A DNA stretch of 64,000 nt, taken from positions 768,001-832,000 of the forward strand of contig OZ242029.1 in assembly GCA_965205015.1 (NCBI GenBank), given 5' to 3'. Position 1 is the first letter of the stretch. Each line of letters opens with the position of its first letter. Made by a program: the position numbers and the translations under genes. Shown here piece by piece: positions 44,516 to 64,000 of the stretch. The DNA comes from Candidatus Poribacteria bacterium. Lineage in GTDB: Bacteria > Poribacteria > WGA-4E > WGA-3G. The notes beneath the pieces were generated by a model. It made no database searches. It worked only from the letters and a program-made list of their open reading frames with translations, and was not told where the DNA came from.

Positions 44516-46216
44516 CTACGTCTGCCCAAGAACCTTCAGAAACGCTTCATCGTCTTTTACATCCGAAAATTCAGGGGTCTCAAGGAAAGTCGGGTAGTAT
44601 GTATCCTGATTATAAGGATCTACCACATAGTACGCCTGAGCGGACTTTAAATGATGTAAAGTTTTTTCTCTGTCCTTTTCAGAAGCCCAGATGCTTGCAG
44701 CCAGCTGGAAGTGTCCATAATGGTTGTTATCTTCCAAATCAATGGCGATTTGTAGGAAACATCTCGCCTCGTTATACTTCTTAGACCACAACAGACAACA
44801 ACCGATATCGTGTGCTAACCACATAAGGTCGTCGAGATTTACAGGTTGACCCGCATCCCGTTTCTTCAACTCTCCTTCCATATAGGCACTCACTTCCGTA
44901 AAAATTCGATCGAAACGTCCCCAATCTCCTTGTTTACCGTATATGAGAAGTCGACTTTCTTTCGCAATCAACCAGAATTGAAAATAATGCTCTGAACCGG
45001 GTTCGTTGTTAGCACGTTCCAACTTTTCTATCTCAAGGAAGGCTTCATCGAACCGGTCGTTGCATCGTAATACATCTATTCCGGCCTGCAGGAATTCACA
45101 ACGCCTGAAGTAACTCACGCCTGGGTTCTCTAAGCGTTCAGAGGCGTCATTATATAGCTGAATCCAGTCATCAATACGACCTTCCGCCGCCCAACATCCG
45201 GATCCCCCCAGATTAGCACCAGCCTCCAACACATATTTATCCGGCAAGTGCTGGCACGTCCAACAGTAAAGCCGAGAGTGTTCCTCAATAGCTGCTCGAT
45301 TTCTTCCAAGAGAAGCGAGACTATCGACTAACCTGTCATGCGCCCAGAAACGCTCCGTATCACCCAGCGCGTCCTCCATATACCTACGGAGTAGAGGTAC
45401 CCGCTTTTCCATGCCGAGTTTGCCCATATACGGGTATATCTCATCGGCAGCAAGATGCACCAATTCAGGCGTGATTTCACCCTTAAGTGCGTCTTCAATC
45501 TCGTTACAGGCTTCTGTAAGAATACCCACTCTGGATGCAGGATCAGATTTCACTTTTTCCATGAATAAATTGAACTTACTGCGAACTTCTTCTAATTGTG
45601 TCATGACATTCTCCTTCAGATTATCTGATAGTTGTAGATGACCAAAAAATTCTGGATTCAAGAGTTCTTGCTCTGTTCGCAAACGCTTTCGCGCCCGTTG
45701 GAGTCGACTCGTAATTGTGTTCACCGACACCCCCATGAATTTGCCGATCTCTTTCGTTGACATTTCGTCCAGATAGAAGAGGGTTACAACTGTGCGTTCC
45801 TTCTCCGGCAGTTTTTCTAAAAGTCTTTTCACAAGTTCATGGTAATGCTCGGTTCTCTCTGTCATTCGCTGTTCTGATATATGATGCGTATAAGAGGACT
45901 GCTCGATTTCTTCTACAGGTGTATCCTCCAGGGATTGCATCATAGACTTTTGGCTTCGCATCCAATCAATGCAAAGCCGATTTGCGATAACATGGAGCCA
46001 CCCCGCAAATTGATCGGGATTCTTGAGCGTCGGAAGTTTTCTGTATGCCCTCAGGAAGGTATCTTGCATAATCTCTTCCGCATGGTGAAAATCTTGGATC
46101 TTCCGCCATGCCAGTGCATGAACGCTTTTTTGGTACTTTTCGACCAAGATGCTAAACGCAGCGTCGTCCCCAGATAAAATTTTGCGAATCAATTGAACAT
46201 CGTCTTCTCTTTCCAC
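44516..46216 (-). CDS. ECF sigma factor with a C-terminal ~360-aa helical TPR-like domain (paralog 1)
   Basis: sigma2 (AEEIMQDTFLRAY...F.GWL..IA) and sigma4 (LPEKERTVVTLFY...EIG...TITSRLQRARKRL) followed by a helical repeat-like extension. Confidence 0.88.
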   Translation of the reverse strand: MEREDDVQLIRKILSGDDAAFSILVEKYQKSVHALAWRKIQDFHHAEEIMQDTFLRAYRKLPTLKNPDQFAGWLHVIANRLCIDWMRSQKSMMQSLEDTPVEEIEQSSYTHHISEQRMTERTEHYHELVKRLLEKLPEKERTVVTLFYLDEMSTKEIGKFMGVSVNTITSRLQRARKRLRTEQELLNPEFFGHLQLSDNLKENVMTQLEEVRSKFNLFMEKVKSDPASRVGILTEACNEIEDALKGEITPELVHLAADEIYPYMGKLGMEKRVPLLRRYMEDALGDTERFWAHDRLVDSLASLGRNRAAIEEHSRLYCWTCQHLPDKYVLEAGANLGGSGCWAAEGRIDDWIQLYNDASERLENPGVSYFRRCEFLQAGIDVLRCNDRFDEAFLEIEKLERANNEPGSEHYFQFWLIAKESRLLIYGKQGDWGRFDRIFTEVSAYMEGELKKRDAGQPVNLDDLMWLAHDIGCCLLWSKKYNEARCFLQIAIDLEDNNHYGHFQLAASIWASEKDREKTLHHLKSAQAYYVVDPYNQDTYYPTFLETPEFSDVKDDEAFLKVLGQT

Positions 46217-46330
46217 GAAACTTCCTCCTCATGAACAGATTGAATCGTGTTGCATTCGCCAAAAGATTTAATCAAACGCCAATCTTTAAAATTAAGCAAT
46301 ACAGTCCGATTTACACTCTCTATTATTAAG

Positions 46331-46357
46331 GACGAAAGTTTAATCAAAAAACGTGCA
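46331..46357 (-). promoter_or_regulatory. ECF-type promoter TGCACG-N17-CGTC upstream of ECF-TPR paralog 1
   Basis: Same motif and spacing at 51452-51478 and 53014-53040. Confidence 0.7.
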
Positions 46358-46529
46358 TTCTGCCGAAAAAACGTTCAAGTCATTGTAAATTTTATTATAA
46401 GTCAGGGTGATCGATGGATGGAACAGCGAAAAGAGCAGCACAAATGCTTTTCTGTCGTGCGGTGTCCGAAGCAAAGAACACAAGGGCACATTTGTTTCTT
46501 TGTAATATGGGAAGTTTGAAAACTATACG

Positions 46530-47936
46530 CTAAATTTCAATGCGTACAAATGCCAGGAACGCTCCGGAGAAAAAAACAACGAAAAATAGCGTTAACAACA
46601 GCAAATTCATCGCCGCTGTGTTGAAATCACGACCAAAGTTGCGTGTGTCTTCAAATTTGGGAACTGCTTCTGGATTGACGGGTTTCTGCGATACCCCCTC
46701 GCGAACACCAATGATATGAAGACTCTCCGGATCCGCTCTATCGGTATCAACAATGAATTCGCGAAATTGTTGAGCGTAGGATTGAACATTCTCTAAGAAT
46801 TGCAGGTGTCGCTCAAAACCGGTTCCAGCGAACGACTCAAGGAGATGCTCCACAATTGTGACAGGTGAAAGACGGGTGATGGTGCGCGCCCGGTTCACTT
46901 GAGAAATCCGCCGTTTTAAGTGTTCTTCGCGCAAGCGTTCCCGCTGTTCTGCGTCTTGGGTAACATACTCGCCTGACAATTGTAATTTTTTTCTTTCATC
47001 TTCGCGGACTTCATGCCAATGAGTGTCGAATTCCTCCCTACGTTCCCAAAATCCAAGACTCGTCCTGAACGATGAAGAGCGTCCCTCGGATGAAGAGTGC
47101 CCGGCGATCGAAGCAAGTGTACTGGGCATAAAAACAACAAGCGTGACCCAAGCTAACAGAAGTATCACAAGGCTTACTGCGCTCCGTTGCACACGCGCCG
47201 ATACCAATAAACCTAATGCAAGAAAAAGACAGGTGTACAGGAGCGCAATAAAGTAGATGACACCTAAACGTCCCCACGCATCTGCGCTAAGGTAAACATC
47301 ACTTGACATAGAGATTACCAACAGATTCACCAACACGGCAAGCGTAAATGGAATACTCATGCTTACCAACGCCCCTAAAAATTTGCCAATCAGCACAGTG
47401 TGCCGCGGAATCGCATTTGCCAACATTAATCGCAATGTACCCTGTTCACGTTCATTGGAGATGGAATCGAAGGTGAACAGGAGCGCGAGGAGACTTAAGA
47501 CATAGCCGATGATAAAACCCCAGTCCACTTTGGTAACCTCTGGGTCTAGGTTGTCCCGATTGGGGGTGGCAGATGGATATCCGAGTGTCCATAAGCCCTC
47601 TAAGCCACGTTCCTGCCAACTCCAGCTCTGAAAACTACTGACATGTGCGGACAAAAACGCTTCACCGCGCGCTGCGCAGAAGTGGAGGGGGGATGGTTTT
47701 TTGTGAAGATCCCCAGGTCCCTTTTGTGCGAGTGTATAGAAACTTGCGTTGGCATGAGACTTTAAACGGTTTTGATGTGCAGCGACATTCTCGCTATACT
47801 TCTGAACCCGCTCTGGATGCTCTCGGAGATGCAGAACGGCATTGGTCAGCATCAAACCCAAGAGCAGGACTGTTGCAAGCGCGAATCGGAGGCTATTGAG
47901 ATTATCATAGAGTTCGCGTTTTACGATATGCCACAT
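46530..47936 (-). CDS. ABC-2 type permease (type B of the pair)
   Basis: FDSISNEREQGTLRLMLAN...LIGKF motif; paralog of 59038..60489. Confidence 0.88.
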   Translation of the reverse strand: MWHIVKRELYDNLNSLRFALATVLLLGLMLTNAVLHLREHPERVQKYSENVAAHQNRLKSHANASFYTLAQKGPGDLHKKPSPLHFCAARGEAFLSAHVSSFQSWSWQERGLEGLWTLGYPSATPNRDNLDPEVTKVDWGFIIGYVLSLLALLFTFDSISNEREQGTLRLMLANAIPRHTVLIGKFLGALVSMSIPFTLAVLVNLLVISMSSDVYLSADAWGRLGVIYFIALLYTCLFLALGLLVSARVQRSAVSLVILLLAWVTLVVFMPSTLASIAGHSSSEGRSSSFRTSLGFWERREEFDTHWHEVREDERKKLQLSGEYVTQDAEQRERLREEHLKRRISQVNRARTITRLSPVTIVEHLLESFAGTGFERHLQFLENVQSYAQQFREFIVDTDRADPESLHIIGVREGVSQKPVNPEAVPKFEDTRNFGRDFNTAAMNLLLLTLFFVVFFSGAFLAFVRIEI

Positions 47937-47940
47937 TTTT

Positions 47941-48063
47941 GGGTTCTCGGTCTTCGGTTTTCGGAGGAAAGGGTTATCGGTATGCCTCGCAGTGAGAGTT
48001 CCAAGAGGGATTTGTTAAACGAAAACCTCTTACTGACCACCGACAACTGACCACCGATAACCA
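47941..48063. repeat. Heptamer-armed palindromic intergenic element
   Basis: TCGGTCT/TCGGTTT left arm, AAGAGG...AAACGAAAACCTCTT core, ACTGACC/ACCGACA right arm. Confidence 0.7.
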
Positions 48064-48065
48064 CT

Positions 48066-49577
48066 TTACACTTCACTTTTGACGAAAATCAGAAATATCA
48101 GGATGAAAATAACGACATTCATCATGAGCAAGATGCCTACATCCGGCAAGGCTCGCTTAGCATTTGTGTTCACATTGCCCCTTTGAAAAGCAAATTCTGG
48201 AAGAATGCTCCAATCCGCTGCGCCCTGGTCTGAGGAGAACCACTGTCGAGATCCAAATGCCTCTTTATCGTAGAGAGCGTCGATCACTTCCTGTCTGTAT
48301 CGTCTCGCTGCGTCGAAGAAATCTCTGACACCGTGCAAGTCAGTATCGGTCCATGCTTGTGTTGCAGCATCATACAGCCCCACGGGTGAAAGTTTCAAAT
48401 AGAGTCGCTTCACATTTGCCGGGTGAATGAAGATATCCTCCAGCGCAGGTTTTCGGACAAGCCAGGTCTGGTCGGCCGTACGGATAATCAGCGAACCGAG
48501 GAAACGGAAATGACTCTGGGCGTGAGGTATCTTGTGTTCCTCTTTCTCATCAAACCCTTCAAACGCCAAGATACCTTCAAAGGAGTATTTTAGCGTCCGG
48601 GGGTCACCCCAGAAGTAAGCGTAAGGGTTGGATCCACTGCCTCTTAATCCAAGATTCCAATCTATTCCTGGGAAAGCGTCGGTAGCGAGGAAATGCCTCC
48701 GTTCTCTCTCAAATTCTCCTTCCCACATCTGTTTAATTTGACTAAAAGCGGAGGCAGCACGCGCCTGCGGTGCTTCAGAGCGGGGGATCACAGCAAGAAT
48801 CGTATTCGGATAGATGAGGACTAAAAACCCCCAAACGAACATCGAGAGCATCAATGCAGTACTCGTTCGACACGTCGCCGCCGAAATCAGCAGTCCGATG
48901 AGGTAAAACACTGACAGATACGCAACGGATGCCAAAAGAATCCCGCCGATCCGTAAAAAATCATCGGTGTTTAGAGAAATGGAAGGGGTCGTCGTCAGCA
49001 AGATGACGGCGAGGAGAAGGCTTATTAGCAATGGCACGAGTAGGCAGATCATCGCACTGATGTATTTGGCAAGCAGGACATGCCCGCGACGGACGTGCGA
49101 CATCAAGACGAGACGTAATGTGCCACGCTCGTATTCTCCCGCGAGGGTATCGTAGGCGAAAATCAATGCCAATAAGCTCAGGATCACCTCAAAGATAAAA
49201 ACAATATCCATGGAAGCAAACATATCCATAAACGGATTATCCGCCCCATGCATTCCGGCATCCCACAGCGATGGAACATACGTATGTGATACCTGTACCT
49301 GGTTTCCAACCCGTTTATCGTATCCAGCATTGAAAATGCTCAATGGATTGGGGGGACGGTCGATACGCACTTCACCTGCTGAATAGGTTTTTTTCGCCTG
49401 CATCTGTCGCTGATGCGTTTTGACAGCGTCGTTGTAGTCCATCAATCGCTGTTCATAATCCTTAAGAAGCACAGCAGTATTGGCGACAACAAGCAACAAC
49501 GTAATAAAGACAGCTGCAGCGAAGCGGAACGTCATCAGGTTGTCGAGGAGTTCTCGGCGGATAAGCGTTGTTAACAT
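48066..49577 (-). CDS. ABC-2 type permease (type A of the pair)
   Basis: RPPNPLSIF and AYDTLAGEYERGTLRLVL motifs; paralog of 60639..62201. Confidence 0.88.
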   Translation of the reverse strand: MLTTLIRRELLDNLMTFRFAAAVFITLLLVVANTAVLLKDYEQRLMDYNDAVKTHQRQMQAKKTYSAGEVRIDRPPNPLSIFNAGYDKRVGNQVQVSHTYVPSLWDAGMHGADNPFMDMFASMDIVFIFEVILSLLALIFAYDTLAGEYERGTLRLVLMSHVRRGHVLLAKYISAMICLLVPLLISLLLAVILLTTTPSISLNTDDFLRIGGILLASVAYLSVFYLIGLLISAATCRTSTALMLSMFVWGFLVLIYPNTILAVIPRSEAPQARAASAFSQIKQMWEGEFERERRHFLATDAFPGIDWNLGLRGSGSNPYAYFWGDPRTLKYSFEGILAFEGFDEKEEHKIPHAQSHFRFLGSLIIRTADQTWLVRKPALEDIFIHPANVKRLYLKLSPVGLYDAATQAWTDTDLHGVRDFFDAARRYRQEVIDALYDKEAFGSRQWFSSDQGAADWSILPEFAFQRGNVNTNAKRALPDVGILLMMNVVIFILIFLIFVKSEV

Positions 49578-49614
49578 GGTTTACCCTTAAAATCAAACTG
49601 GATACAGCATTATC

Positions 49615-51333
49615 CTACTTCTGCCCGAGAACCTTCAGAAACTCTGGGTCATCCTTTACATCCGAAAATTCCGGAGTTTTAAGGAAAGACGGGTAGTAGC
49701 TATCCATATAATTGTAGGAACTAACTATATAATCGCTCTGAGCGATCTTCAAATGGTGTAAAGTCTTCTCTCGGTTTTTCTCAGATGCCCAGACGCTCAC
49801 AGCAAGCATGAAGTGATTATAATCGTTGTAATTTCCCAAATCGATGGCGAGTTGTAGCAAACGTTTCGCTTCATCATACCTCTTCGCCCATACCAGACAA
49901 CAACCGATATTATGAGCAGTACAAACAAGCTCATAGATATTTACGGGATAACCGGCACTCCGTTTTTCGACTTCTCCTTCAATAAACGTCCTTGTATCCA
50001 TCAAGACTCGATCGAAACGATCCCAATCTCCCTGTTTGCTATACACCCGAAGTCGATTCTCTCTTATCGCCAACCAGAATCGAAAATAACTCCGCCAACC
50101 CGGTTCGCCATTGGCACGTTCCAACTTTTCTATCTCAAGAAGTGCCGCATCTAACCTATCGTTCCTTATTAAGATATCTGATCCAAATTGCAGAAAATCG
50201 CAACGACTGTACTGACTCACTTCAGGGTTCTCTAAGCGTTCAGATGCCTCATTGTAAAGTTGAATCCAGTCATCAATACGGCCTTCCGCCGCCCAACATC
50301 CAGCAGTGTTCGGATTAGAAACAATCCGCAACACATATTTTTCTGAGTGCTTGCATGCCCAACGGTAAAGACGCGTCTGTTCCTCAATAGCTTCTTGATT
50401 TCTCCGAAGAAAAGCGAGGCTTTTGACTAACCTGTCATGTGCCCAGGAACGCTCCGTATCATCTGGAGTGTCATCCATATACTTCCGGAGTAGAGGGAGC
50501 CGTTTTTCCATGCCGAGACTGCCCATATACGGGTATATCTTATCAACCACAAGACGCACCAATTCAGGCGTAATTTCACCCTTAAGTGCATCTTCAATCT
50601 CGTTGGCGGCTTCCTTAAGAATATCCTCCCTTGATGCAGGGTCAGATTTCACTTTTTCCATGAATGCATCGAATTTGCTGCGAAGTTGCTCTAATTGATT
50701 CATAATATTCTCCTCCAGATTATCTGATAACGGTAAATGACCAAAGAATTCTTGATCCAAGAGTTCCGGATCTGTTTGTAAACGTTTTCGCGCCCGGTGG
50801 AGCCGACTCGCAATTGTGTTTACCGGCACGCCCAAAAATTTGCCGATCTCTTTCGTCGGCATTTCGTCAAGATAGTAGAGTGTTACGACCGTGCGTTCAT
50901 TTTCTGGCAGTTTTTCTAAAAGCTGTTGGACAAGATCACGGCAATACTCTGTTCTCTCCGTCATCCGCTGTTCTGACATGTGGTGTGTATAAGAGGATTC
51001 CTCAATTTCTTCCAAACGTGTGCCTTCCAAAGATTGCATCGCAGGCTTGTGCTTCTGTATCCTCTTTTGCTTTCGCATCCAATCAATGCAAAGCCGATTG
51101 GCGATGACATAGAGCCACCCAGCAAATTGATCGGGATTTTTAAGCGTCGAGAGTTTTTTGTATGCCTGAAGGAAGACTTCTTGCATAATATCCTCAGCGT
51201 AGTGATAATCGCCGATCTTCCGCCATACAAGGGTATGAACGCTCTTTCGGTACCTTTCGACCAAGATGCCAAACGCAGCGTCGTCCCCGGATAAAATTTT
51301 GCGAATCAGTTGAACATCGCTTTCTTTTTCCAC
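49615..51333 (-). CDS. ECF sigma factor with a C-terminal TPR-like domain (paralog 2)
   Basis: Collinear paralog of 44516..46216; GTG start MEKESDVQL after GGAGG SD. Confidence 0.88.
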   Translation of the reverse strand: MEKESDVQLIRKILSGDDAAFGILVERYRKSVHTLVWRKIGDYHYAEDIMQEVFLQAYKKLSTLKNPDQFAGWLYVIANRLCIDWMRKQKRIQKHKPAMQSLEGTRLEEIEESSYTHHMSEQRMTERTEYCRDLVQQLLEKLPENERTVVTLYYLDEMPTKEIGKFLGVPVNTIASRLHRARKRLQTDPELLDQEFFGHLPLSDNLEENIMNQLEQLRSKFDAFMEKVKSDPASREDILKEAANEIEDALKGEITPELVRLVVDKIYPYMGSLGMEKRLPLLRKYMDDTPDDTERSWAHDRLVKSLAFLRRNQEAIEEQTRLYRWACKHSEKYVLRIVSNPNTAGCWAAEGRIDDWIQLYNEASERLENPEVSQYSRCDFLQFGSDILIRNDRLDAALLEIEKLERANGEPGWRSYFRFWLAIRENRLRVYSKQGDWDRFDRVLMDTRTFIEGEVEKRSAGYPVNIYELVCTAHNIGCCLVWAKRYDEAKRLLQLAIDLGNYNDYNHFMLAVSVWASEKNREKTLHHLKIAQSDYIVSSYNYMDSYYPSFLKTPEFSDVKDDPEFLKVLGQK

Positions 51334-51451
51334 GAAATTTCCTCCGAATAAATAGATTGGACCCTGTATACCCTCGCCAAAGCGTTTAATCAAATACCAA
51401 GTTTTATGCAATTAAGCAATATGAGGTAGTTTACACCTTCTATATATTAAA

Positions 51452-51478
51452 GACGAAATTTTGGGTAGAAAACTTGCA
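51452..51478 (-). promoter_or_regulatory. ECF-type promoter TGCAAG-N17-CGTC upstream of ECF-TPR paralog 2
   Basis: Conserved motif and spacing with 46331-46357 and 53014-53040. Confidence 0.7.
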
Positions 51479-51538
51479 TTCTGGGGAAAAAATGAAAAAC
51501 TGGATTTTTTAGTAGGTGTTTTGTGAGTGTCAGGCAAC

Positions 51539-51570
51539 AAAAAAGGGAACCGGTAAAAAACCAGTTCCCT
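51539..51570 (-). terminator. Intrinsic terminator after the STAS gene
   Basis: Minus strand AGGGAACTGGT...ACCGGTTCCCT followed by a T-run. Confidence 0.75.
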
Positions 51571-51596
51571 GTGGACATTCTACTGGACCTCGGAAG

Positions 51597-51938
51597 CTAA
51601 GCCGACAATCCAGCAACAGCAGCGTCCTCACTGTCAAAATGTTCAAACAGATTAACCACACGACTCAGAACAATGAGATTTCTGATATGTTTTCCGACAT
51701 TGATGACACCCACGCGTCCCTGTTTTCGCGACGCAGCAGCGTATGCCTCCATCAAGGTGCCAAGACCTGAACTATCGATCCGATTGACCTGCTCGAAATT
51801 GATGAGGATACGTGGGGTATCAGAAGCCTCTATTTGTGGCAAGATAACTTTCCGTAAGTCTGATACGGAGCGTCCGCCCACCTTTCCAGTGGGTTTCAAA
51901 ATCGAGATACCATTTTGCTGGCGAATTTGCGTTGTCAT
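51597..51938 (-). CDS. STAS domain anti-sigma factor antagonist
   Basis: ILINFEQVNRIDSSGLGTL with the conserved phospho-Ser motif DSSG. Confidence 0.92.
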   Translation of the reverse strand: MTTQIRQQNGISILKPTGKVGGRSVSDLRKVILPQIEASDTPRILINFEQVNRIDSSGLGTLMEAYAAASRKQGRVGVINVGKHIRNLIVLSRVVNLFEHFDSEDAAVAGLSA

Positions 51939-52056
51939 TTTTTTCTCCTTTTTTTATTTGTGAAATTTGTCACTGTTAATTGTTCTTTAATACGATTCAA
52001 ACGTTCAATTTAAGGATGCGTTGACTTAACCCGAATTCTATTAAAACACCGTCTTT

Positions 52057-52251
52057 TTAACGCAAATCCAAGTCCATCTCCGTTTTGAGGCGTTTATGGA
52101 ACGTTTCAAAAGCCGCTCCCCAAGGTCCCTCCTCTGTATGAGGATCGCGCTGTTCAGCAGGCACGACAGTCTCATCAGAGCCGAAAGCAAGGTAACCGAT
52201 GCCGAAGAGTAACAAACAGACGAGGAGTAGATTAATCATTAGGAAACGCAT
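52057..52251 (-). CDS. Small exported or membrane-anchored peptide
   Basis: 64 aa; AAGGAG SD; hydrophobic signal-like N-terminus; ECF-like promoter upstream. Confidence 0.65.
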   Translation of the reverse strand: MRFLMINLLLVCLLLFGIGYLAFGSDETVVPAEQRDPHTEEGPWGAAFETFHKRLKTEMDLDLR

Positions 52252-52334
52252 TTTTTTCTCCTTATTAGCGTAGGACTTGCATTTGAATTCGGAAGTGGCA
52301 ATTTTACTGAAATTTTACATCCGTTGATTTAAGT

Positions 52335-52362
52335 GACGCATCTTAGATGTCAAAAGGTTGCA
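52335..52362 (-). promoter_or_regulatory. ECF-type promoter variant TGCAAC-N18-CGTC
   Basis: Upstream of the small peptide and STAS genes; matches the array motif with a 1-nt longer spacer. Confidence 0.5.
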
Positions 52363-55270: not shown

Positions 55271-55454
55271 TAATCAACTTCCCCCGATTCAGAATATCTT
55301 TAGAACTATCTTCACAATTTGACGAGGATTAAGAACCAAATTCTTAATCCTCATCAAAGCATTTTTAGGTTAAATCTCTACACTAATTATATATTCAAAC
55401 TAACATCTAACTTGCAGCATGAAATTCCGATCAAATTTACCCTTCGTGATCCTT

Positions 55455-57665
55455 TCATGGCGATTCTGACAAATGCTCATCAAACCAAGAAAGCATCCGT
55501 TGCCAATAATCAGCCACATTCGGATAACGCCATGATGTGACTTGCGAATGTCCCTCACCTTCATAACGCGCTAAAACGGCCTTTTTTCCCAGTCTACGCA
55601 AGCCAGAGAACATTTCTCCTGCCTGTGGGACAGCAGGGACACCATCCAAGGCACCAACAACTAACAACAGCGGCGTCTCCACCTTGTCCAGAAAAAAGAT
55701 AGGGGAGTTTTCGATGTATCGGTCCTGGAACTCCCAGAGCGACCCACCCATTTTGCCCTGTCCTTTTTCTGCCCAATCGATCCACTGGCTATCTCCCTCT
55801 TCCGTCAAATGCCCATAGAAACTAATGAGATTCCCCACCGGCGCACTACTGACAGCTGCACTAAACCTTGATGTTTGTGTAATCAGAGCGTTGACGCAGT
55901 AACCTCCGTAACTGTGCCCCATTATTCCTAAACGGTTGGGATCGGCAATTCCCATATCAATTAGCGTATCTATACCAGAGAGCACCATCTCCGTCAACTC
56001 TCGGACCGGCGCGTTGGTTTCCATTGGGGTATCGGGAAGAAAGACGACGTAATCTTGCTTCGTCAGCAGAAAATTGCCCCCATAGCGATCTGTGCCGAAA
56101 TCGTTAAATTGATACGAGAGCAAAGAACCCCCGTAGACCTCCGTAATTAATGGATAGTGTTTGCCCTCTACATAGTCTGGTGGGAGCAGCAAGGCACCTC
56201 TAAGGTCTTTTCCAGAAGGTGTCTGCCAAGTGACGAGTTGAGAAGTCCCAAGTCGTTCTGTTTCAATATCTGGGTTCAGTCGAGTGAGTTGCTGTGGATT
56301 TTGAAAGTCGGTGTCCGCTACCCACACATCGGGCGCGTGATTTACGTCCTCAATGCTGTAGAAAATATCCCCCGTTTGAGGTGCAACATCCATGTTTCTA
56401 CCCATAGGATTATAATTACGCTTTTCCTGAACCAACCGTGTGATCTCGCGCGTTTTCAGATTGACGCGATGAAAACCGTGCTGTTCACTGTTTGAATGGA
56501 CGGTATGCATGTATATTGACTCGGTGCAGTCTGGCGACCAAACAGTGTCTGCTTCCGCTTGCCGAACAATTCGAACAACACGTCCATCAAATCCGTCTGT
56601 CAATTTTTCAATAGCGCGATCAGCGATCGTAATTCGCCAGAGATCCCCCCGGGCAACACAGAATAGGTGTTTACTATCAGAACTCCACAAAGGCGGATGC
56701 GAACTATTTGTTAGTTCAATATCGGTGTCTTGGGTGAGATTTAGTTGGCTACCGTCAACTGTCGAAATGAGGAAAAGCTCATCTTTTGCAGCCTTATTCT
56801 CTGTCGGAAACGCAACGTAGCGACCATCTGGCGACCAAGTAAACAAACGTCCCCATCCAGATTTCAGCGAGTCAGCAAGTAATTTCGGAGGTCCTCCATT
56901 TAGCGACGAAAGATAGAGTTCGTACAGTAGTTGAGCGTTACTTTCTAACCCTTGAAAACTCGTAAACGCCGCGGTCGCTCCATCAGGGGCAACACGGATA
57001 CCAGATGGATAGAGTCCCTGCGCTAACGTTTCGACTTCTCCTGTATCAACCCTTATCATCCCAAGGTCTGCGCGATATCGCGCGTCAAACCACGAAGTCC
57101 GCCGCGGTCGGAATTCATTTTCCGGTTGTCCAGCAATAGGACTCGCAAAGAGTGTTACCGATGCCTTTTCCTTGTCTGGAGGTGCTTCTTCATCTGTCTC
57201 CGCTTCTGAATGCAACCTAACGATAATACGTGTTCCATCAGGTGTCCAGAGCGGTGGCTGCGCCCTTGACAAAAACGGCTGAATCCTGACATCACTCGCG
57301 AGTCGTGGGACATCTTCGCCGACCTCCCATATCCACAATTGGGCTGTTTTATGCTTATCCGAATAAAAAGCCAATCTTTTTCCATCCGGAGACCAGGCAG
57401 GTCTATAACTTGTGCCCCAATTCGGCGTGAGATTTCGCGATTCGCCACTCTGAACATCGATGAGCCAAATTTCACTTCCTTCTTGCAAGCCAGCGATACC
57501 CGTTGGAAGATATGTTTTATCTCCGGCTCCTACGCGTTTTCTGAAATAACTTTGAACAGCAACAGCAAGTTGTGTTCCATCTGGTGAAACAGCAATTGGA
57601 TCAAATAGCGTGAGGAGTTCTATCGAGAGAATGTCCTCAATACCGCTAAAAAGGTCAGTGTGCAT
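55455..57665 (-). CDS. S9 family (prolyl oligopeptidase-like) peptidase with beta-propeller
   Basis: WSPDG repeats; GIMGHSYGGY; LLVVGALD; EGHS; AGGAGG SD before MHTDL. Confidence 0.92.
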   Translation of the reverse strand: MHTDLFSGIEDILSIELLTLFDPIAVSPDGTQLAVAVQSYFRKRVGAGDKTYLPTGIAGLQEGSEIWLIDVQSGESRNLTPNWGTSYRPAWSPDGKRLAFYSDKHKTAQLWIWEVGEDVPRLASDVRIQPFLSRAQPPLWTPDGTRIIVRLHSEAETDEEAPPDKEKASVTLFASPIAGQPENEFRPRRTSWFDARYRADLGMIRVDTGEVETLAQGLYPSGIRVAPDGATAAFTSFQGLESNAQLLYELYLSSLNGGPPKLLADSLKSGWGRLFTWSPDGRYVAFPTENKAAKDELFLISTVDGSQLNLTQDTDIELTNSSHPPLWSSDSKHLFCVARGDLWRITIADRAIEKLTDGFDGRVVRIVRQAEADTVWSPDCTESIYMHTVHSNSEQHGFHRVNLKTREITRLVQEKRNYNPMGRNMDVAPQTGDIFYSIEDVNHAPDVWVADTDFQNPQQLTRLNPDIETERLGTSQLVTWQTPSGKDLRGALLLPPDYVEGKHYPLITEVYGGSLLSYQFNDFGTDRYGGNFLLTKQDYVVFLPDTPMETNAPVRELTEMVLSGIDTLIDMGIADPNRLGIMGHSYGGYCVNALITQTSRFSAAVSSAPVGNLISFYGHLTEEGDSQWIDWAEKGQGKMGGSLWEFQDRYIENSPIFFLDKVETPLLLVVGALDGVPAVPQAGEMFSGLRRLGKKAVLARYEGEGHSQVTSWRYPNVADYWQRMLSWFDEHLSESP

Positions 57666-57675
57666 TATTTTCCTC

Positions 57676-58935
57676 CTATCTTGGGTCATCACACGCTTGA
57701 CTTTGTTTGCTGCCATCACCGATGCGGTTAGAACGAAATCCCGAGATGCTTCTTTCAACACTTCGGCGCAGCATCTCATCGCTGAGATGGAACGCCTCGC
57801 GTATTGTTATTGACAGTTTCTGCTGCTGCTCTATCGAATCGAGCAATTGCTGGTTTTGCACGACAACGACAGAATCAGCATTCTCTTGAATTTCCTGTAG
57901 CGAACGTTTCGCTTGTTCGGCGCGACGTTGACCCTCAAAGTTGAATGGACAGGTCACAACCCCTACAGCCAAAGCACCTTGCTCTCGGGCGAGAGAGGCG
58001 ATCAGAGGCGAAGCACCCGCTCCTGTTCCGCCCCCCATACCGGCGATAACGAAGACAATATCCGCGTCCGCAACGATGGCGTTGAGCGTTTCCCTGTCCT
58101 CCTCAGCCGCTTTTCTACCTATCTCTGGGTTCGCGCCACATCCAAGTCCTTGGGTAGTCTTAGCACCGATCTGCACCGGTGTTGCTTCAGGGTGCTTGTC
58201 AAGTGCTTGCTGGTCTGTATTCACGGCATAAAATTCAATGTCTGTCAAACCGTCTTCAATCATTCGTTTAACGGCGTTCCCGCCCGCGCTACCGACTCCA
58301 ATAACCTTGATTATAGTTTCGGTGCGTTTGGATTCTTCTCGTTTGGATGACATAGTTCTCCCTCTTTCAGGTTCGACACCGAACTCCCTGCGTAAGAGTT
58401 CACGTGTCTGTCTTAATTTGGTCTTGATTGTGCCTATCGCCAATCCGAGTTCAGTGTGGATCTCCTTGACGCTCCACAATTCCAGATAGTATAGGACCGC
58501 AACGCGGCGCACTTTATCTGGAAGGTGATGCACTGCTTCCCTTATAGCGTCGTAGTGTTCCGTTTCCCTGAAGCGTGCGACTGCATCTTGGTCGATACGA
58601 TCCGTCAGATCCGCATAACTATAAGGAATGTCGTTTCCGGAACGATCGGCAGCAGCATAGTACCGCTTGCAAGCGTTGTAAGCAATGCGATGCAGCCACC
58701 CCCCAAAACTCTCAACGCTCCGCAGTCCACTGATATTTTCCCAGACGGCTCTCCAGACATCCATGAGAATTTCTTCGGCATCGCGGGGTTGTCTCGAATG
58801 TGCGATAATCACTTTCCAGATGCGTCGACTATAACGCGACATCAGTTCTGCAAACGCTAATTCATCACCGGCTTGTGTAAGCCCAATGAGTTCTTCATCT
58901 GTTAGAATGGCGTGCGTTGATAGATCGTATCGCAT
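57676..58935 (-). CDS. ECF sigma factor fused to an FtsZ N-terminal GTPase domain
   Basis: sigma2/sigma4 (DAEEILMDVW...F.GWL.RIA; LPDKVRRVAVLYY...TIKTKLRQTR), then IKVIGVGSAGGNAV, NTDQQAL, TQGLGCGANPEIGRKAAEE, AGMGGGTGAG and PFNFEG. Confidence 0.9.
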   Translation of the reverse strand: MRYDLSTHAILTDEELIGLTQAGDELAFAELMSRYSRRIWKVIIAHSRQPRDAEEILMDVWRAVWENISGLRSVESFGGWLHRIAYNACKRYYAAADRSGNDIPYSYADLTDRIDQDAVARFRETEHYDAIREAVHHLPDKVRRVAVLYYLELWSVKEIHTELGLAIGTIKTKLRQTRELLRREFGVEPERGRTMSSKREESKRTETIIKVIGVGSAGGNAVKRMIEDGLTDIEFYAVNTDQQALDKHPEATPVQIGAKTTQGLGCGANPEIGRKAAEEDRETLNAIVADADIVFVIAGMGGGTGAGASPLIASLAREQGALAVGVVTCPFNFEGQRRAEQAKRSLQEIQENADSVVVVQNQQLLDSIEQQQKLSITIREAFHLSDEMLRRSVERSISGFRSNRIGDGSKQSQACDDPR

Positions 58936-59037
58936 AAACAGTTCCCAATTGATTTTAACCTAAAGAGTGGACTTTTTCGGAAGGTGGTTTAAAAAAAGAA
59001 AAATCGCTGTACTTTTCGCTACGCCTCTCACAGGGAC

Positions 59038-60489
59038 CTATACCTCCGAACGCAGGAAGACGAGGAAGGCTCCTGAAAGCGACACACCGAGCAGTAAAAT
59101 GAGTAACAGAATATCGACTATAGCGGGATTGAGCGTCTCCTGAAAAGACAACTTATCCTCAAACATTGGGATAGTCTCTGGTAAGACGGACCTTTCCGAC
59201 ATGCCTTTCCGGACACCCACGAAATGAAGGCTCTCTGGATCCGCCCGATCCATTTCAACGATGAAATTTCGGAAGTGTCGGATATGAAGGCGGCAGTGTT
59301 CTAAGAATTGCAAATGCCGATTAAAGCCTGTGCCTGCCATGGATTCAAGGGCATATTGGACAACCGCTGCAGGAGAGCATCGGGTTATCTGTCTTGCATG
59401 CAGGACTTGCGCACTTTGCGCAGCGAGATGCTGGCGACTCAGCCGCTCCCGAATCTCCATGTCTTTGTTAACGAACGCCTGTTGGATCTCCAATTCTGAA
59501 GTGTCTACCCCCGCAACTTCCTCCTGAGAGGTTTCTGCGGATTGACGGCGTTCTCTTAAAGTCTCCCTTTTATCCAGGAAATCGCTCCGAATTTGGTCGA
59601 AGGCGGTCCCCTTTGTCCTCTGAAATTGATGGTGCGTTTGAATCGGAGGCATCCATCTTGTGGAGAGTGTGCCGAGGGTTGACGGCATAAACACCACGAC
59701 AGTCACCCAGATGAGCAACAGGACAACCAGACTTAACCGACTTTCCCGAGTCATCGCCGAGATAATAAGCCCAATTGCGACGAAGATACCAGCATAGCAA
59801 GAAGCAATCAGCACGATCAGTCCTAAACGCCCCCAGTCTGCGCCGCTGAGCTGCGTCCAACTCTCGGTAGAAATGATGGCGAGATTGAATAACACGGCAC
59901 AATAGAAGGCAATGAGGACCGTGATGAGGGAGCCAAGGAACTTACCCATTAATAGAGTCGGGCGCGAAATCGAATTGGCAAGACACAGCCGCAGCGTCCC
60001 GCGTTCTCGTTCTCCGGAGAGCGCGTCAAAGGTAAACAGGAGCGGCATGAAAGAGAGCAGATAGGTCACAATAAAGACCCAATCGATCCCCGTGGCAGTG
60101 GGACGAAGATTGCTAATCGCCTCCATATTCAGACGTGGAACGCCCATCGACCAAATATAGGCAAGCCCGTATAACCGCCAGAAACCACCACTCACGCTTT
60201 CGTCCGGTAGTAAGGCGTCCCCGCCATCGGCGATGAAGGCGAGCGATGCGGGGCGTTTGTAAAGCTTACCGGGTCCCTTGTGTAGCAGTTCATACAACTG
60301 CGTTCGGGATTTCAATTCGGTCTGAGATGCGTTAACCTTCTCGGAATACTTTCGAACCCGTTCCGGATGGGTTCGAAGATGCACAACGGCATTGGTTACC
60401 ATTAATGCTACGAGGATGAACGTGGTTAAGGCAAAGCGGAGACTCGTGAGGTGGTCTAAAAGTTCGCGTCTGACAACATGCCAAATCAT
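59038..60489 (-). CDS. ABC-2 type permease (type B)
   Basis: FDALSGERERGTLRLCLAN motif; paralog of 46530..47936. Confidence 0.88.
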   Translation of the reverse strand: MIWHVVRRELLDHLTSLRFALTTFILVALMVTNAVVHLRTHPERVRKYSEKVNASQTELKSRTQLYELLHKGPGKLYKRPASLAFIADGGDALLPDESVSGGFWRLYGLAYIWSMGVPRLNMEAISNLRPTATGIDWVFIVTYLLSFMPLLFTFDALSGERERGTLRLCLANSISRPTLLMGKFLGSLITVLIAFYCAVLFNLAIISTESWTQLSGADWGRLGLIVLIASCYAGIFVAIGLIISAMTRESRLSLVVLLLIWVTVVVFMPSTLGTLSTRWMPPIQTHHQFQRTKGTAFDQIRSDFLDKRETLRERRQSAETSQEEVAGVDTSELEIQQAFVNKDMEIRERLSRQHLAAQSAQVLHARQITRCSPAAVVQYALESMAGTGFNRHLQFLEHCRLHIRHFRNFIVEMDRADPESLHFVGVRKGMSERSVLPETIPMFEDKLSFQETLNPAIVDILLLILLLGVSLSGAFLVFLRSEV

Positions 60490-60638
60490 TTATTAGTTCT
60501 CGATTATCAGTTTTCAGTTAAGAAGCCATCGGTTAGTTTCATATCATTTCTAAAAATAAGTATTGCATACGCGATTTTTCTGAAGGGATACACAGCGGAT
60601 TTTAACTTAAGCAAAACACCTATTAACTGACAACTATT

Positions 60639-62201
60639 CTACACTTCAACTTTGATAAAAATCAAAAATGTCGCCATGAACAGGACGATATTGGTGCATA
60701 ACAGCAAAAACAGTTCAGGTAGGGCGCGATGCGCGTTGATGCCGATTTCTGCTCGCTCGAAGTGAAAACGAGGGAGGACCGACCAGTCTATATCCGCTTG
60801 ATTTGGAGCAAACCACTGCAGGCTCGCGAACGCATCTCTCTCATGAAAGGTCCCAATGAGGGTGCGGCGGTACGCCTGCGCGGTTTGAATATAATCCACC
60901 ATGCTGTTTAAATCGGTGCCTGCCCATGCGGCGGTAGCAAACGTATAAAGGCTTGCCGGACTGAACTTCATGAGACGCTCATCCCATTGTGCTTGATGGA
61001 GGGTGGTCTGTGCTACCAACTGCTGGCCGACGAAACCGACTTCGTCGGCATTCCGGATGTGCAGGGAGGCGGCGAATGCATAATAACGGCGTAAGTGTGG
61101 CACTAAAGGGTGCGCTGTATCTTTCAGTTCAAGGTTAACCCGAGGGAAGTCCCCAAGGAAGAAATATCCTGCTCCACTAAAGAGACCTGAAAACGCTTCA
61201 GAATCTGAAAATATCGGAGACTCCCCCTTAAGCGGACTATTGGCTAAGAACCGGTGTCGTTCTCTATCCGCCGCTTCCCGAATCTGCGCTATCTGCTGCT
61301 CGGTGGATCTTTTTTTTCCACGCATGTCCGCGTCTGGATTCAAGGCAAAGCGGCTCCAATTTGGATAGACGAGCACTAAAATCACCCATAAGAACATACA
61401 GAGCATCAAGGAGGTAGCGGCACGACGGGCTATCGCGGAAACGAGCAGACCGATCAGATAGAAAACCGACAGATAGACGATTGTCATTAAAACAATGCCG
61501 CCAATTCGTAGAAAATCACTTCCACTGAATTGCAAGGAACGCGCGAAGGAACACTGAATCAGGGCAAGCAATAGACTCATCAACACGGGGAGTAGCAGGC
61601 AAACCATCGCCGCAATATATTTAGCAAACAGCACATTTCCTCGCCCGACGGGATGTGAGAGCACCAAACGCAAGGTCCCTGTCTCCCAATCTCCCGCAAT
61701 CGCGTCATAAGCGAAAAGCAGAGCGATCAGACTCAACACAACCTGAAAGATAAAGACCAGGTCTATCTGTGAAAAGAGATACAGATAGGGGTTATTTATC
61801 CCGAGCGGTGCCCCTGGACTTGAGAGGGACGGGACGCTGCCAGACACCCACTGTTCTTCCTCGGGTCTGACATCAACGATGGGATTTGAGAGGGCTGGCA
61901 CACTGTCAAACGCTATATCAAGCTCACTGCCAAAACGCGTTTCCAAGCCCGCGCTAAAGAGGCTCAGGGGGTTCGGAGGACGCTGAACCTTTAACTTTAA
62001 GACCGAATAGGTGGGGGTTGCCTCGACCTTCTCGCGATTTACCGCTTCTTTCTGACTATAGTCGGCGAGACGCTCTTCATGTGCACCGATTAAGACGAAC
62101 GTATTGGCAACGACAAGTAAGAGTGTAATGACCACCGCAGCAAAAAAACGCGCACTCATCAGATGAATCAAGAGTTCCTGGCGTATCAGGGTCCGTAACA
62201 T
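60639..62201 (-). CDS. ABC-2 type permease (type A)
   Basis: RPPNPLSLF and AYDAIAGDWETGTLRLVL motifs; start MLRTLIRQE by analogy with 48066..49577. Confidence 0.88.
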   Translation of the reverse strand: MLRTLIRQELLIHLMSARFFAAVVITLLLVVANTFVLIGAHEERLADYSQKEAVNREKVEATPTYSVLKLKVQRPPNPLSLFSAGLETRFGSELDIAFDSVPALSNPIVDVRPEEEQWVSGSVPSLSSPGAPLGINNPYLYLFSQIDLVFIFQVVLSLIALLFAYDAIAGDWETGTLRLVLSHPVGRGNVLFAKYIAAMVCLLLPVLMSLLLALIQCSFARSLQFSGSDFLRIGGIVLMTIVYLSVFYLIGLLVSAIARRAATSLMLCMFLWVILVLVYPNWSRFALNPDADMRGKKRSTEQQIAQIREAADRERHRFLANSPLKGESPIFSDSEAFSGLFSGAGYFFLGDFPRVNLELKDTAHPLVPHLRRYYAFAASLHIRNADEVGFVGQQLVAQTTLHQAQWDERLMKFSPASLYTFATAAWAGTDLNSMVDYIQTAQAYRRTLIGTFHERDAFASLQWFAPNQADIDWSVLPRFHFERAEIGINAHRALPELFLLLCTNIVLFMATFLIFIKVEV

Positions 62202-62266
62202 CGTTTTCCGTTGCCTCAATTCCACGGGTTCTACTACCGAATTAGATATTTTCCAGGGATAGGTGA

Positions 62267-64000
62267 TTAGGACTTCAAGAGCATCGGCATGATGAGGTGG
62301 ATATGTCCTTCCTCACCAACCGGCTTAACAATCACAGGATCCAACGCGCTCGAGAACTCCAATGCCAAAGACGCCGTTCCAATGTGCGTGAGCGCCTCTA
62401 TCAGCATCCGAGCATCGAGACCGACACGGATACTTCCAGTGCTGGACACCACTGCTAAGGTTTCCTGCTGCTCATCTATCTCAGAATCCCTCGGCGAAAT
62501 CCGAATCCGTTGTTCATCTATCTCTAAACAGACCGTCGGCGAAATCCGAATCTGTTGTTCATCTATCTCTAAACAGAGAGCAGGGCATTTCGGATCCGAA
62601 AATGCTGAAACCTGACGTGTTGCACGCAAAATCGGCGCTTTCTGCACAACTGTACGCATCTGAGGAGACTTTGGAAAGAGTTTCTCATACTTCGGATATT
62701 CACCGTCTACCAACTGCGCCGTCAACGTGGTTCGCTCATCCGCGAAAAGAATCTGGTTCGCAACGCGTGAAACCCGTACCTCCAAGGAATCAGCAAACGT
62801 TCGTTCAATATCTTTGACGGCTTTGAGCGGGACGATAAACCCATCGTTATCCTCAGACAACCTTAAGGGTTCACACCGTGCGATGGCAATCTGCTTGCCG
62901 TCGCATCCAACGACTTCGGTCCTGTCCTCAAGCAGGTTAAAATAGAGCCCGTTTAGAAAAGTCCGCCGGACTTTCTCCGTGGACGCAGCACATTCGGTTT
63001 TGTGGAGGATCGACCGCAGGATCTCTCCATCAATCGCAAATGCTCCCGGGTCAACAGAAGGGAGTTGTGGAAATTCCTCATCCGCAAGCCCGACGATTTT
63101 GTAAACGTCATCTCCAGAAGTGATTCTAACCCGACCGTCCGCTGTCTTTGTCACGTCTATCGGTTTCTCCGCGGGCCACGCTTTAACGATATCCCCTAAT
63201 TTTTGGGCGGGGACAGTGATCGCTCCCGCTTCTTTGACTGTCCCTTCAACCTTCATTCTGATGCCAATTTCCGTGTCCATCGCCATGCATTCAATCGTGC
63301 TTCCTTCCGCACGGATGAGAACGTTTGAGGGAATAGGTGAGGTATCCTGCCCACTCGTGACACGCTGCAGCATTTGTAAAGAAGTTAAAAGCGCATCCCT
63401 TTCAAAAGTTAATTTCATTCCAAAACCCCTATTCAAATATATTTGGGCGCGACGTTCGGGTTCAATTGTGAGGTCTAAGGCTTCCTGAATCATGAATTCA
63501 TACTGCTTTAACTGTTGTCGCGCACGTCGAAGCCGACTTTTAATCGTGTTTTCTGACACACCTAAAAAGTTACTTATTTCTGTGTAGGTCATCCCCTCAA
63601 GGTAGTGAAGCGTGATAGTTGTCCGATTGCTCTCCTTCAACCTCGCGAGCAGCTTTTCGACCACGTCGCGCCGCGCTTCAGCGAAGGTCCTCGCGTGTTC
63701 TGTCGCGATATACTGGGAATACGCCTCTGTCTCTACTTCAGAGATGTCAGTGTTTTCCAGCGGCTCAGTGTGCCGCTGGTTTTTTCGGAGCCAAGCGATA
63801 CAGAGACGATCCGCAATCACATAAACCCACCGTAGAAACCGCGTCGGATCTTCCAAGGTCTCTAATTTGTGATAGACTCGCAGGAAGGTTTCCTGCGTAA
63901 TATCTTCGGCGATATGGAAATCCCCAATTTTCCGCCATGCGAGCGCGTGAACCTGTTTCTGGTACTTTCTAACCAACCTTGAAAAGGCAGTTTCATCACC
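62267..64000 (-). CDS. ECF sigma factor fused to a full-length DNA polymerase III beta sliding clamp (DnaN-like); 5' end lies outside the window
   Basis: Frame open to the window edge (GDETAFSRLVRKY); sigma2/sigma4, then MKLTFERDALL...P.IPSNVLI...D.EIGI...ITVPAQKL...EEFP...FLNG...GEYPKY...LIMPM. Confidence 0.9.
   Translation of the reverse strand, partial: GDETAFSRLVRKYQKQVHALAWRKIGDFHIAEDITQETFLRVYHKLETLEDPTRFLRWVYVIADRLCIAWLRKNQRHTEPLENTDISEVETEAYSQYIATEHARTFAEARRDVVEKLLARLKESNRTTITLHYLEGMTYTEISNFLGVSENTIKSRLRRARQQLKQYEFMIQEALDLTIEPERRAQIYLNRGFGMKLTFERDALLTSLQMLQRVTSGQDTSPIPSNVLIRAEGSTIECMAMDTEIGIRMKVEGTVKEAGAITVPAQKLGDIVKAWPAEKPIDVTKTADGRVRITSGDDVYKIVGLADEEFPQLPSVDPGAFAIDGEILRSILHKTECAASTEKVRRTFLNGLYFNLLEDRTEVVGCDGKQIAIARCEPLRLSEDNDGFIVPLKAVKDIERTFADSLEVRVSRVANQILFADERTTLTAQLVDGEYPKYEKLFPKSPQMRTVVQKAPILRATRQVSAFSDPKCPALCLEIDEQQIRISPTVCLEIDEQRIRISPRDSEIDEQQETLAVVSSTGSIRVGLDARMLIEALTHIGTASLALEFSSALDPVIVKPVGEEGHIHLIMPMLLKS
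62491..62577. repeat. 45-bp tandem duplication inside the DnaN-like domain
   Basis: 62491-62532 and 62536-62577 differ at one base; encodes CLEIDEQ(Q/R)IRISP twice. Confidence 0.9.

Follow-up and report, generated by a model that had tools for sequence, protein, structure and literature searches.

Introduction

Internal in-frame initiation of translation is known from a few well-studied genes, and sigma factors of the extracytoplasmic function (ECF) type that bear fused regulatory domains have been described as well. Here, we describe a locus where the two may meet, a stretch of 64,000 nucleotides from a Candidatus Poribacteria bacterium (GenBank assembly GCA_965205015.1, contig OZ242029.1, positions 768,001 to 832,000), hereinafter the window. 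Between 44.5 and 64 kb, its minus strand carries four long open reading frames (ORFs), in each of which an N-terminal ECF sigma factor runs stop-free into a second module, namely, a tetratricopeptide repeat (TPR)-like alpha-solenoid (two copies), an FtsZ-derived GTPase domain or a DnaN-like sliding clamp. A Shine-Dalgarno (SD)-like block followed by an in-frame ATG stands at each junction of sigma and module, and we present comparative evidence that these junction sites are probably maintained internal initiation sites, from which the module would be produced in free form beside the fusion.

Several described systems share one or another of these features, the nearest in kind being in-frame initiation within a gene at the boundary of two domains. 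According to Meydan et al. (bioRxiv 10.1101/520783), in-frame initiation inside the ArcB gene of E. coli adds a free diffusible C-terminal domain, ArcB-C, to the full protein, and the ArcB-C site is conserved among orthologues, as are the poribacterial junction sites. In that account, ArcB-C was shown by retapamulin-assisted ribosome profiling (Ribo-RET) and Western blot, whereas the poribacterial products are predicted from sequence; furthermore, unlike ArcB, the poribacterial genes are ECF sigma fusions in which the free part would be a whole former protein (clamp, FtsZ domain or solenoid). Another known internal-translation system, described as widespread and conserved in the section of the publication at hand, yields a C-terminal product that assembles with the full-length protein; assembly has been demonstrated there, whereas for the free and tethered poribacterial modules it is only proposed.

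On the sigma factor side, the known ECF sigmas with extensions consist, according to the excerpts available, of regions 2 and 4 and, behind them, a soluble domain that is fused on and replaces a separate anti-sigma factor, one such group having TPR. The extensions reported in these excerpts include TPR, SnoaL-like, Cys-rich and transmembrane types, some of which, as stated in the accessible part of a review, arose by fusion with an anti-sigma gene. Internal start sites are not described for ECF extension groups in the portions of the published accounts consulted, and the main text of the 2021 ECF classification, whose supplements might list such groups, contains no occurrence of FtsZ, tubulin, clamp or Poribacteria. 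The membrane-spanning sigma/anti-sigma hybrids IutY and ECF52 SCO4117 (PMC8999054, in part) resemble the approximately 26 of 36 sigma fusions of a complete related genome, G001, that bear a membrane span. In that part of the source, IutY-type hybrids are released by proteolysis and have no paired internal start. The window genes, as well as the extensions of their G001 homologues, are devoid of a hydrophobic span.

A connection between a clamp and a sigma factor has a precedent in late transcription of phage T4, in which RNA polymerase is activated by the sliding clamp gp45, with gp33 and the sigma-like gp55 as intermediaries. There, as in sigma-DnaN, the clamp is physically linked to a sigma-family protein; the T4 link, however, is a short clamp-binding tail, whereas sigma-DnaN is a covalent fusion whose second module is clamp-like by sequence. 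A literature search (with the supplements of the 2021 classification outside its scope) turned up no publication that deals with sigma fusions of Poribacteria, with sigma joined to FtsZ or to a clamp, or with internal starts in genes for sigma fusions, and no earlier report combining internal initiation with an ECF fusion was found. A sponge metaproteome (PMC6081418) reports only six poribacterial proteins, all oxidoreductase-like, with no sigma factor among them. Four sequencing runs are listed for window positions 54001-64000, and none of these is catalogued as RNA. If the junction sites work, each gene codes for a regulator and also for the free partner of that regulator, their ratio being fixed in the mRNA; sigma control would then take a compact form in this uncultured, sponge-associated phylum. 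More generally, expression signals of the parts can survive in a fused gene, which gives annotators a reason against treating such fusion ORFs as single products.

Results and Discussion

Junction sites of the window and their chance level

The organism uses SD-led initiation. Many gene starts in the window follow GGAGG or AAGGAG, several annotated starts being spaced from it by about 6-7 nt (read by eye), and the 16S rRNA of a complete genome from a relative terminates with ...GATCACCTCCTTTCT. When pairing with a 12-nt anti-SD was computed, -7 was reached by 18 of the 47 longest-ORF starts vs 16 of 295 internal ATGs.

The four SD-plus-ATG motifs reported in the initial annotation read on the minus strand exactly as worded there, and all four ATGs are in frame, at the domain junction and inside long ORFs (Table 1). 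The SD-like block precedes the ATG at a working distance, 4-7 nt. The two TPR-like genes are a paralogue pair, so the window contains three independent cases, not four. As a check on chance, pairing with CCUCCU was scored for the 295 internal in-frame ATGs in the 47 long ORFs of the window; eight of these (2.7%) pair at -7 kcal/mol or lower, three of the eight being junction sites and a fourth probably the real peptidase start.

Conservation of the fusions and of the junction start codon

A scan of species-representative genomes, in which loci were taken with 10-kb flanks, yielded 79 loci, 72 of them poribacterial; synteny also drew in neighbouring fusions. A hidden Markov model of the sigma part identified 165 sigma ORFs in the 79 loci and the window, 138 of which carry extensions of at least 100 aa that cluster into FtsZ (70), TPR-like (46) and DnaN (21) families plus a singleton. 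The fused architecture is present, among the matches listed, in 120/120 sigma-FtsZ and 120/120 sigma-DnaN protein clusters. That the fusions stem from faulty assembly or a frameshift error was ruled out because the listed clusters are all fused and come from many sources; the fusions are conserved across the phylum Candidatus Poribacteria. The FtsZ class extends to distant paralogues (45-58% identity) with full-length FtsZ and to one ORF of 1,379 aa. These sigma proteins with full-length FtsZ (569-616 aa, FtsZ_C present) and the 1,379-aa ORF (L063-L069, L151, L059) all have AAGGAG- or GAGGAG-type junctions.

A start codon stands at the junction in 136 of the 137 homologous genes of the three families for which DNA is available. 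The codon is ATG in 70/70 members of the FtsZ family (one of them offset by one alignment column) and in 21/21 of the DnaN family; the TPR-like family has ATG in 41/46 and GTG in 4/46. The four GTG copies carry a stronger SD, AAGGAGG, and in the only copy where the junction lacks a start codon (L019), GGAGG-N7-ATG lies eight codons upstream. At the protein level, again among the matches listed, the junction Met is found in 121/121 sigma-FtsZ and 121/121 sigma-DnaN proteins, and 103 of the 113 fused TPR-like matches fit the junction pattern (Met in 102, Val in 1). Five clusters of 361-362 aa looked like free TPR-like genes but come from contigs of 1.2-2.7 kb cut inside the sigma part, and so provide no evidence of free genes; on contigs truncated within the sigma part of a TPR-like gene, gene callers begin at the junction Met.

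Conservation of the SD block at the nucleotide level

Whole-gene alignments of each family were scanned column by column for the mean CCUCCU pairing of the upstream 15 nt and for the share of start codons. Mean anti-SD energies at the junctions are -7.2 to -7.3, compared with a column mean of about -1.7 (standard deviation 1.8-2.0), and in each family the junction is the sole internal column with at least 90% start codons and a mean energy of -6 or lower. The same scan recovered the true N-terminal start of the TPR-like family, which served as a positive control. Among 2,896 columns of five neighbouring control families (three of ABC-2 permeases, S9 peptidase and DUF5916), 49 of them start-codon-rich, no such column was found.

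Codon usage points in the same direction. The linker of the FtsZ family occurs as 32 different hexapeptides (e.g. ERGRT, ERRGT, IREGI, IGGNA, TKENT, TEEDT), and yet Arg within its SD is encoded by AGR (AGA/AGG) in 90/90 cases vs 20% of Arg codons genome-wide, and Gly by GGR in 74/75 vs 43%. The SD of the TPR-like family encodes Glu as GAG in 39/39 cases (genome-wide, GAG accounts for 38% and GAA for about 62%) and the Lys before it as AAG in 37/37, AAA being the preferred Lys codon (about 62%); one subfamily writes AAGGAG through K-G-D (AAA GGA GAT). The SD Gly of the DnaN family is GGA in 20/20. Synonymous diversity is 0-0.17 in the SD core columns vs 0.41-0.58 in the two spacer codons. Exclusive AGR usage singles out the SD Arg column among 29 Arg-majority columns, and exclusive GAG usage the SD Glu column among 52 Glu-majority columns. 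The mRNA at the junctions is AT-rich and weakly folded, ranking 33/390, 7/546 and, for DnaN, 91/541 among the least-structured positions.

Because the SD bases persist while linker residues change, and are spelled with non-preferred codons, the constraint acts at the nucleotide level; the alignment, codon and control scans all show conservation beyond coding needs. The initial annotation had proposed to examine homologues for SD conservation at synonymous sites, and such conservation was seen; on its own, the recoding test given below was weak. The junction feature is real, non-random and conserved.

The same data bear on the possibility that a charged, flexible linker rich in K, E, R and G, together with a structurally needed Met, mimics an SD and a start codon, or that the resemblance is due to chance. 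The SD does overlap K-E-N, R-G-R and N-G-D codons, a K-K-E-E-x-[MLVI] stretch following region 4 generates SD-like strings in membrane-tethered paralogues, and the recoding statistics given below are mostly unremarkable in individual contexts. Constraint on the protein, however, does not account for the Arg and Glu codon choice across so many linker peptides, for the same AAGGAG being read through K-G-D, for the replacement of the junction Met by GTG only or for the normal synonymous diversity of the spacer codons, and we regard this explanation as very improbable. For the TPR-like pair, where the initial annotation had cautioned that the overlap of the SD with (K/E)-E-N codons could reflect the protein, the caveat falls with the uniform AAG and GAG codons, the K-G-D spelling, the GTG swaps and the relocated site of L019.

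It has been proposed that ribosomes are slowed by SD-like sequences inside genes, and in dnaX and prfB such sequences stimulate frameshifting. Accordingly, the block could be an elongation pause that allows the sigma part to fold, or a frameshift stimulator, and no start site, and the DnaN junction of the window indeed reads G GGT TTT. This string is confined to the window copy, as 20 homologues read GGA GAT TTT or GGA GGT TTT; no slippery heptamer of programmed frameshifting was found at the FtsZ or TPR-like junctions of the window, and neither pausing nor frameshifting explains why a start codon invariably follows 4-8 nt downstream or why ATG is swapped for GTG. With no conserved slippery site and the start codon left unexplained, we discarded this reading as having next to no likelihood.

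Generality among sigma fusions

The initial annotation stated that every sigma fusion has such a site, which is correct for all four genes of the window but not genome-wide in G001. Sigma region 4 is matched 55 times in this genome, and 37 of the matches fall in open frames of at least 300 aa (loci L116-L152); proteins that unite sigma and sensor in one chain have undergone a very large expansion here. Sorted by Pfam and hydropathy, 36 sigma fusions comprise about 26 with a hydrophobic span approximately 40 residues after region 4 and large repeat domains, and 10 soluble ones; the tethered type continues beyond the span into BNR/Sortilin, LRR, Kelch, WD40 or redoxin domains of 550-1,060 aa. 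If a site is taken to be a start codon that has an SD of -6.3 or better and lies no more than about 45 residues past region 4, sites are present in 8/10 soluble vs 6/26 membrane-tethered fusions (Fisher p 0.005, with a post-hoc threshold), and the wording "every sigma fusion" is therefore too broad. The tethered G001 paralogues share the motif K-K-E-E-x-[MLVI]-I-R-E, with which SD-like strings are possible from coding alone.

As a clean negative control, the membrane-tethered fusions proved only partly valid because one such family, sigma-WD40, keeps a strong site, AAGGAGGAA-N3-ATG, in 20/32 orthologues. The remaining orthologues comprise five with ATG and a weak SD, none with a strong SD and no ATG, and seven with neither. 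This joint loss is significant (Fisher p 0.0002, uncorrected for relatedness), and, as SD and ATG disappear together, it implies constraint wherever both persist. A further old family, the sigma-M61_N-like fusions, has the pattern xxG-GAG-GAR-xxx-ATG in 16/16 scored orthologues (of 18 fused ORFs, with L158 and L161 left out); the codon before GAG is AAG, CAG, ACG or AGG and always ends in G.

Origin of the fusions by gene capture

Comparison with free genes links the junctions to the starts of formerly separate genes. Two free DnaN genes of G001 share 54-59% identity with the DnaN-like module, and the first Met residues align. For the FtsZ-derived module, identity with the free FtsZ, a neighbour of an FtsA-like gene, amounts to 63%, and the module begins within one residue of the free start. 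An unfused sigma paralogue ends in ...KEFGVDSE, exactly at the point where sigma-FtsZ continues with R-G-R-T, the four linker codons that form the SD and the spacer in the window gene. Behind an unfused sigma (L070, 10010..11055), about 50% identical to the sigma part of sigma-FtsZ, comes the gene of a small membrane protein, and its start overlaps the sigma stop (GTGA), which is the classical sigma/anti-sigma layout.

A sigma-methyltransferase fusion is present in 1 of the 81 genomes searched (L147 / L184, G001); outside this genome, a stand-alone gene of about 250 aa encodes the methyltransferase (L185-L213). At the loci that allow scoring, the ATG, GTG or TTG start of the free gene aligns with the junction Met of the fusion and is preceded by the same AAGGAG. 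The G001 gene has the look of a fusion that happened recently. Immediately downstream of the sigma-M61_N-like fusion, its module recurs as free paralogues in tandem. In this tandem (L161, 4400..4560, and other loci), stop and start overlap as TAATG, with AAAGGAG before the start.

The initial annotation had offered the capture of whole genes with their ribosome-binding sites (RBS) as an alternative to two products, and the junction Met indeed corresponds to the native Met of the free dnaN and methyltransferase genes and nearly so to that of ftsZ. With the module Met residues aligned to free-gene starts and the methyltransferase SD shared, such an origin is well supported by the comparisons; the two alternatives each hold in part and do not exclude one another.

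Capture raises the possibility that the junction sites are relics, left from captured genes whose RBS and start codons have so far escaped decay, and that the full-length fusion alone matters. It agrees with the fusion found in a single genome, where capture with the RBS can be seen, with the junction Met being the native Met of DnaN and FtsZ, and with the patchiness of tethered sites (6/26 G001 paralogues; 12/32 sigma-WD40 orthologues in which the site is weak or missing). On the other hand, the start codon was kept in 136/137 genes despite divergence of the sigma-FtsZ paralogues down to 45% identity and was replaced nearby in the remaining copy, the SD bases stayed through non-preferred codons as linker residues changed, control genes show no such column, and in sigma-WD40 the loss of ATG goes with the loss of the SD. 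We consider it unlikely that the sites are mere relics.

A proposed model of two products from one gene

The reading that we prefer, with a probability of roughly 0.7, is that the junction sites are maintained internal initiation sites from which, in addition to the fusion, the free module is translated. For the earlier proposal of two products per gene, the comparative evidence for selection on the SD and the start codon stands, and the two products are predicted from the DNA. The first step of the history, capture, has direct support. Paralogues of dnaN and ftsZ and a TPR-like gene each ended up in frame behind an ECF sigma gene that had lost its stop codon, the junction SD and ATG being the RBS and start codon of the once separate gene. 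Selection in Poribacteria would since have kept them as internal translation initiation sites. Initiation at the upstream start would then give the sigma-module fusion and initiation at the junction the free module. Most likely, and as the simplest idea of its role, the free module would compete or assemble with the sigma-tethered module and so set the amount of active sigma, through mixed dimers in the case of the clamp and through competition for a shared partner in the case of the other modules. The upstream starts are GTG in the TPR-like family, TTG or GTG in the DnaN family and ATG with a weak SD (mean -4.7) in the FtsZ family; such starts, compared with the junction ATG, might, as a conjecture, fit a larger amount of free module than of fusion.

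Alternatively, the module could be made mainly from its own transcript, with a promoter inside the sigma coding region and the junction SD and ATG serving a short mRNA, which would account for their upkeep as well. A sigma-70-like TTGAAC-18-TATATT at 63436..63465 (minus strand) ends just upstream of the DnaN SD. This match is absent from the 20 homologues with DNA, which read aaacat, and the region contains 23 promoter-like matches vs 23.7 expected from shuffles. The consensus scan of the region for promoters and terminators gave counts equal to those of shuffles and is uninformative on internal promoters; overall, a dedicated internal promoter seems improbable to us.

Several observations weigh against maintained internal initiation. 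The DnaN family is the weakest on every measure: its window junction pairs at only -5.6, and -5 is reached by 29/295 internal ATGs; exclusive GGR usage is also seen in 5/20 Gly-majority DnaN columns; and the junction is the least favourably ranked of the three in mRNA structure. Synonymous recoding with genome codon usage gave p of 0.05 or lower in 5/32 FtsZ, 0/17 TPR-like and 0/6 DnaN contexts, in a low-powered test with few synonymous choices per context, related contexts and per-context p mostly of 0.1-0.4. The conservation counts concern related sequences, which are not independent events, and the energy thresholds were set after the data had been seen. Among the G001 fusions, two soluble ones (L135, L150) have no site, linkers rich in K, E, R and G are naturally purine-rich, and the six tethered sites out of 26 sit within K-K-E-E-x-M. 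Finally, a captured RBS at the junction is expected by descent alone, and part of the pattern needs no selection.

Beyond internal initiation as such, one might speculate that these ECF sigmas are wired to core cellular machines. A spare clamp, or an FtsZ half that caps filaments, would join mixed rings or filament ends, the free module would set the subunit ratio there, and the sigma would report on replication or division, as a cellular counterpart of clamp-activated transcription in T4. We offer this as a long shot.

Domain architecture of the window genes

Regions 2 (Sigma70_r2, PF04542) and 4 (Sigma70_r4_2, PF08281) were identified by Pfam at the N-terminus of all four fusion ORFs, and TIGR02937 scores 71-105 bits (cut-off 42.9) in the three fusion genes scanned. 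All four thus have the regions 2 and 4 only that define ECF (group 4) sigmas, and they carry soluble extensions of 225-383 aa after region 4, in line with the more than 50 aa of ECF41/42-like sigmas. The coordinates are collected in Table 1.

Table 1. Sigma fusion genes of the window, their junction sites and modules, and other features of the region (positions in the window)
Feature	Coordinates	Strand	Remarks
ECF sigma + TPR-like alpha-solenoid, copy 1	44516..46216	minus	566 aa; GTG start preceded by GAGGAGG
Copy 1, sigma regions 2 and 4	residues 24-180	minus	Pfam
Copy 1, junction AAGGAG-N6-ATG	45602..45616 (AAGGAG 45616..45611, ATG 45604..45602)	minus	-7.1 kcal/mol
Copy 1, predicted free TPR-like module	44516..45604	minus	362 aa read from internal ATG
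ECF sigma + TPR-like solenoid, copy 2 (paralogue of copy 1)	49615..51333	minus	likely GTG start 51333 behind GGAGG
Copy 2, junction GGAGGAG-N6-ATG	50701..50716 (GGAGGAG 50716..50710, ATG 50703..50701)	minus	-9.3 kcal/mol
Copy 2, module ORF	49615..50703	minus	
ECF sigma + FtsZ N-terminal GTPase domain only	57676..58935	minus	419 aa; Pfam Tubulin (PF00091) residues 209-368
Sigma-FtsZ, junction GAGGGAG-N4-ATG	58351..58364 (GAGGGAG 58364..58358, ATG 58353..58351)	minus	
Sigma-FtsZ, module ORF	57676..58353	minus	225 aa
ECF sigma + complete DnaN-like sliding clamp	62267..64000, 5' end beyond window edge	minus	Pfam, TIGR00663
Sigma-DnaN, junction AGGGG-N7-ATG	63416..63430 (AGGGG 63430..63426, ATG 63418..63416)	minus	-5.6 kcal/mol
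Sigma-DnaN, module ORF	62267..63418	minus	383 aa
45-bp unit in sigma-DnaN, repeated 1.9x	62491..62577	minus	97% match, in frame; third clamp domain
S9 peptidase, longest ORF	55455..57779	minus	overlaps sigma-FtsZ gene end, 57663..57779
ABC-2 permease pairs with DUF3526	46530..49577, 59038..62225	minus	after second sigma-TPR-like gene and after sigma-DnaN

The second module of sigma-DnaN comprises three DNA_pol3_beta domains (PF00712, PF02767, PF02768), with position 1 of the Pfam model falling on the junction Met, and scores 193.9 bits with TIGR00663 (cut-off 137.65), which places it among DnaN sliding clamps. It is a third DnaN paralogue, the related genome G001 also carrying two free DnaN genes. 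The 45-bp repeat in its third clamp domain duplicates about 15 residues; most homologues have 576 aa and no extra residues, and the closest sigma-DnaN cluster (94% identical, 591 aa) may share the repeat.

The module of the window's sigma-FtsZ gene is an FtsZ-derived half and not FtsZ proper. FtsZ_C (PF12327) was not found in this gene by Pfam, and TIGR00065 matches at 239.7 bits, below the cut-off of 295.2, along profile positions 7-200 of 353; the G-box GGGTGxG is kept.

The C-terminal part (362 aa) of both TPR-like genes was compared with ECF42, a group delimited by its sigma core and by TPR repeats in the extension; it has no Pfam match, TPR included. The AlphaFold2 model of the family alignment is all-helical, with 20 helices and a predicted local distance difference test (pLDDT) score of 89.6, and its best PDB matches are TPR/PPR solenoids with template modelling (TM) scores of 0.3-0.5; TPR clusters of the Atlas score 0.87 for the module, which is a lead only. 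The label "TPR-like" hence concerns the predicted fold alone. The N-terminal start of copy 2 was picked from the family alignment together with its SD (-9.5).

Neighbouring genes

Transporter genes lie behind several of the window sigmas. The two ABC-2 permease pairs of Table 1 are joined by a MacB-like permease and an ABC ATPase after the first sigma-TPR-like gene, and these transporter genes may be the regulons of the sigmas that precede them. The overlap between the S9 peptidase and the end of the sigma-FtsZ gene concerns the longest ORF only; codon 39 of this ORF, ATG 57665 behind TAGGAGGAAAATA (-9.9), is probably the true start of the peptidase, which abolishes the overlap.

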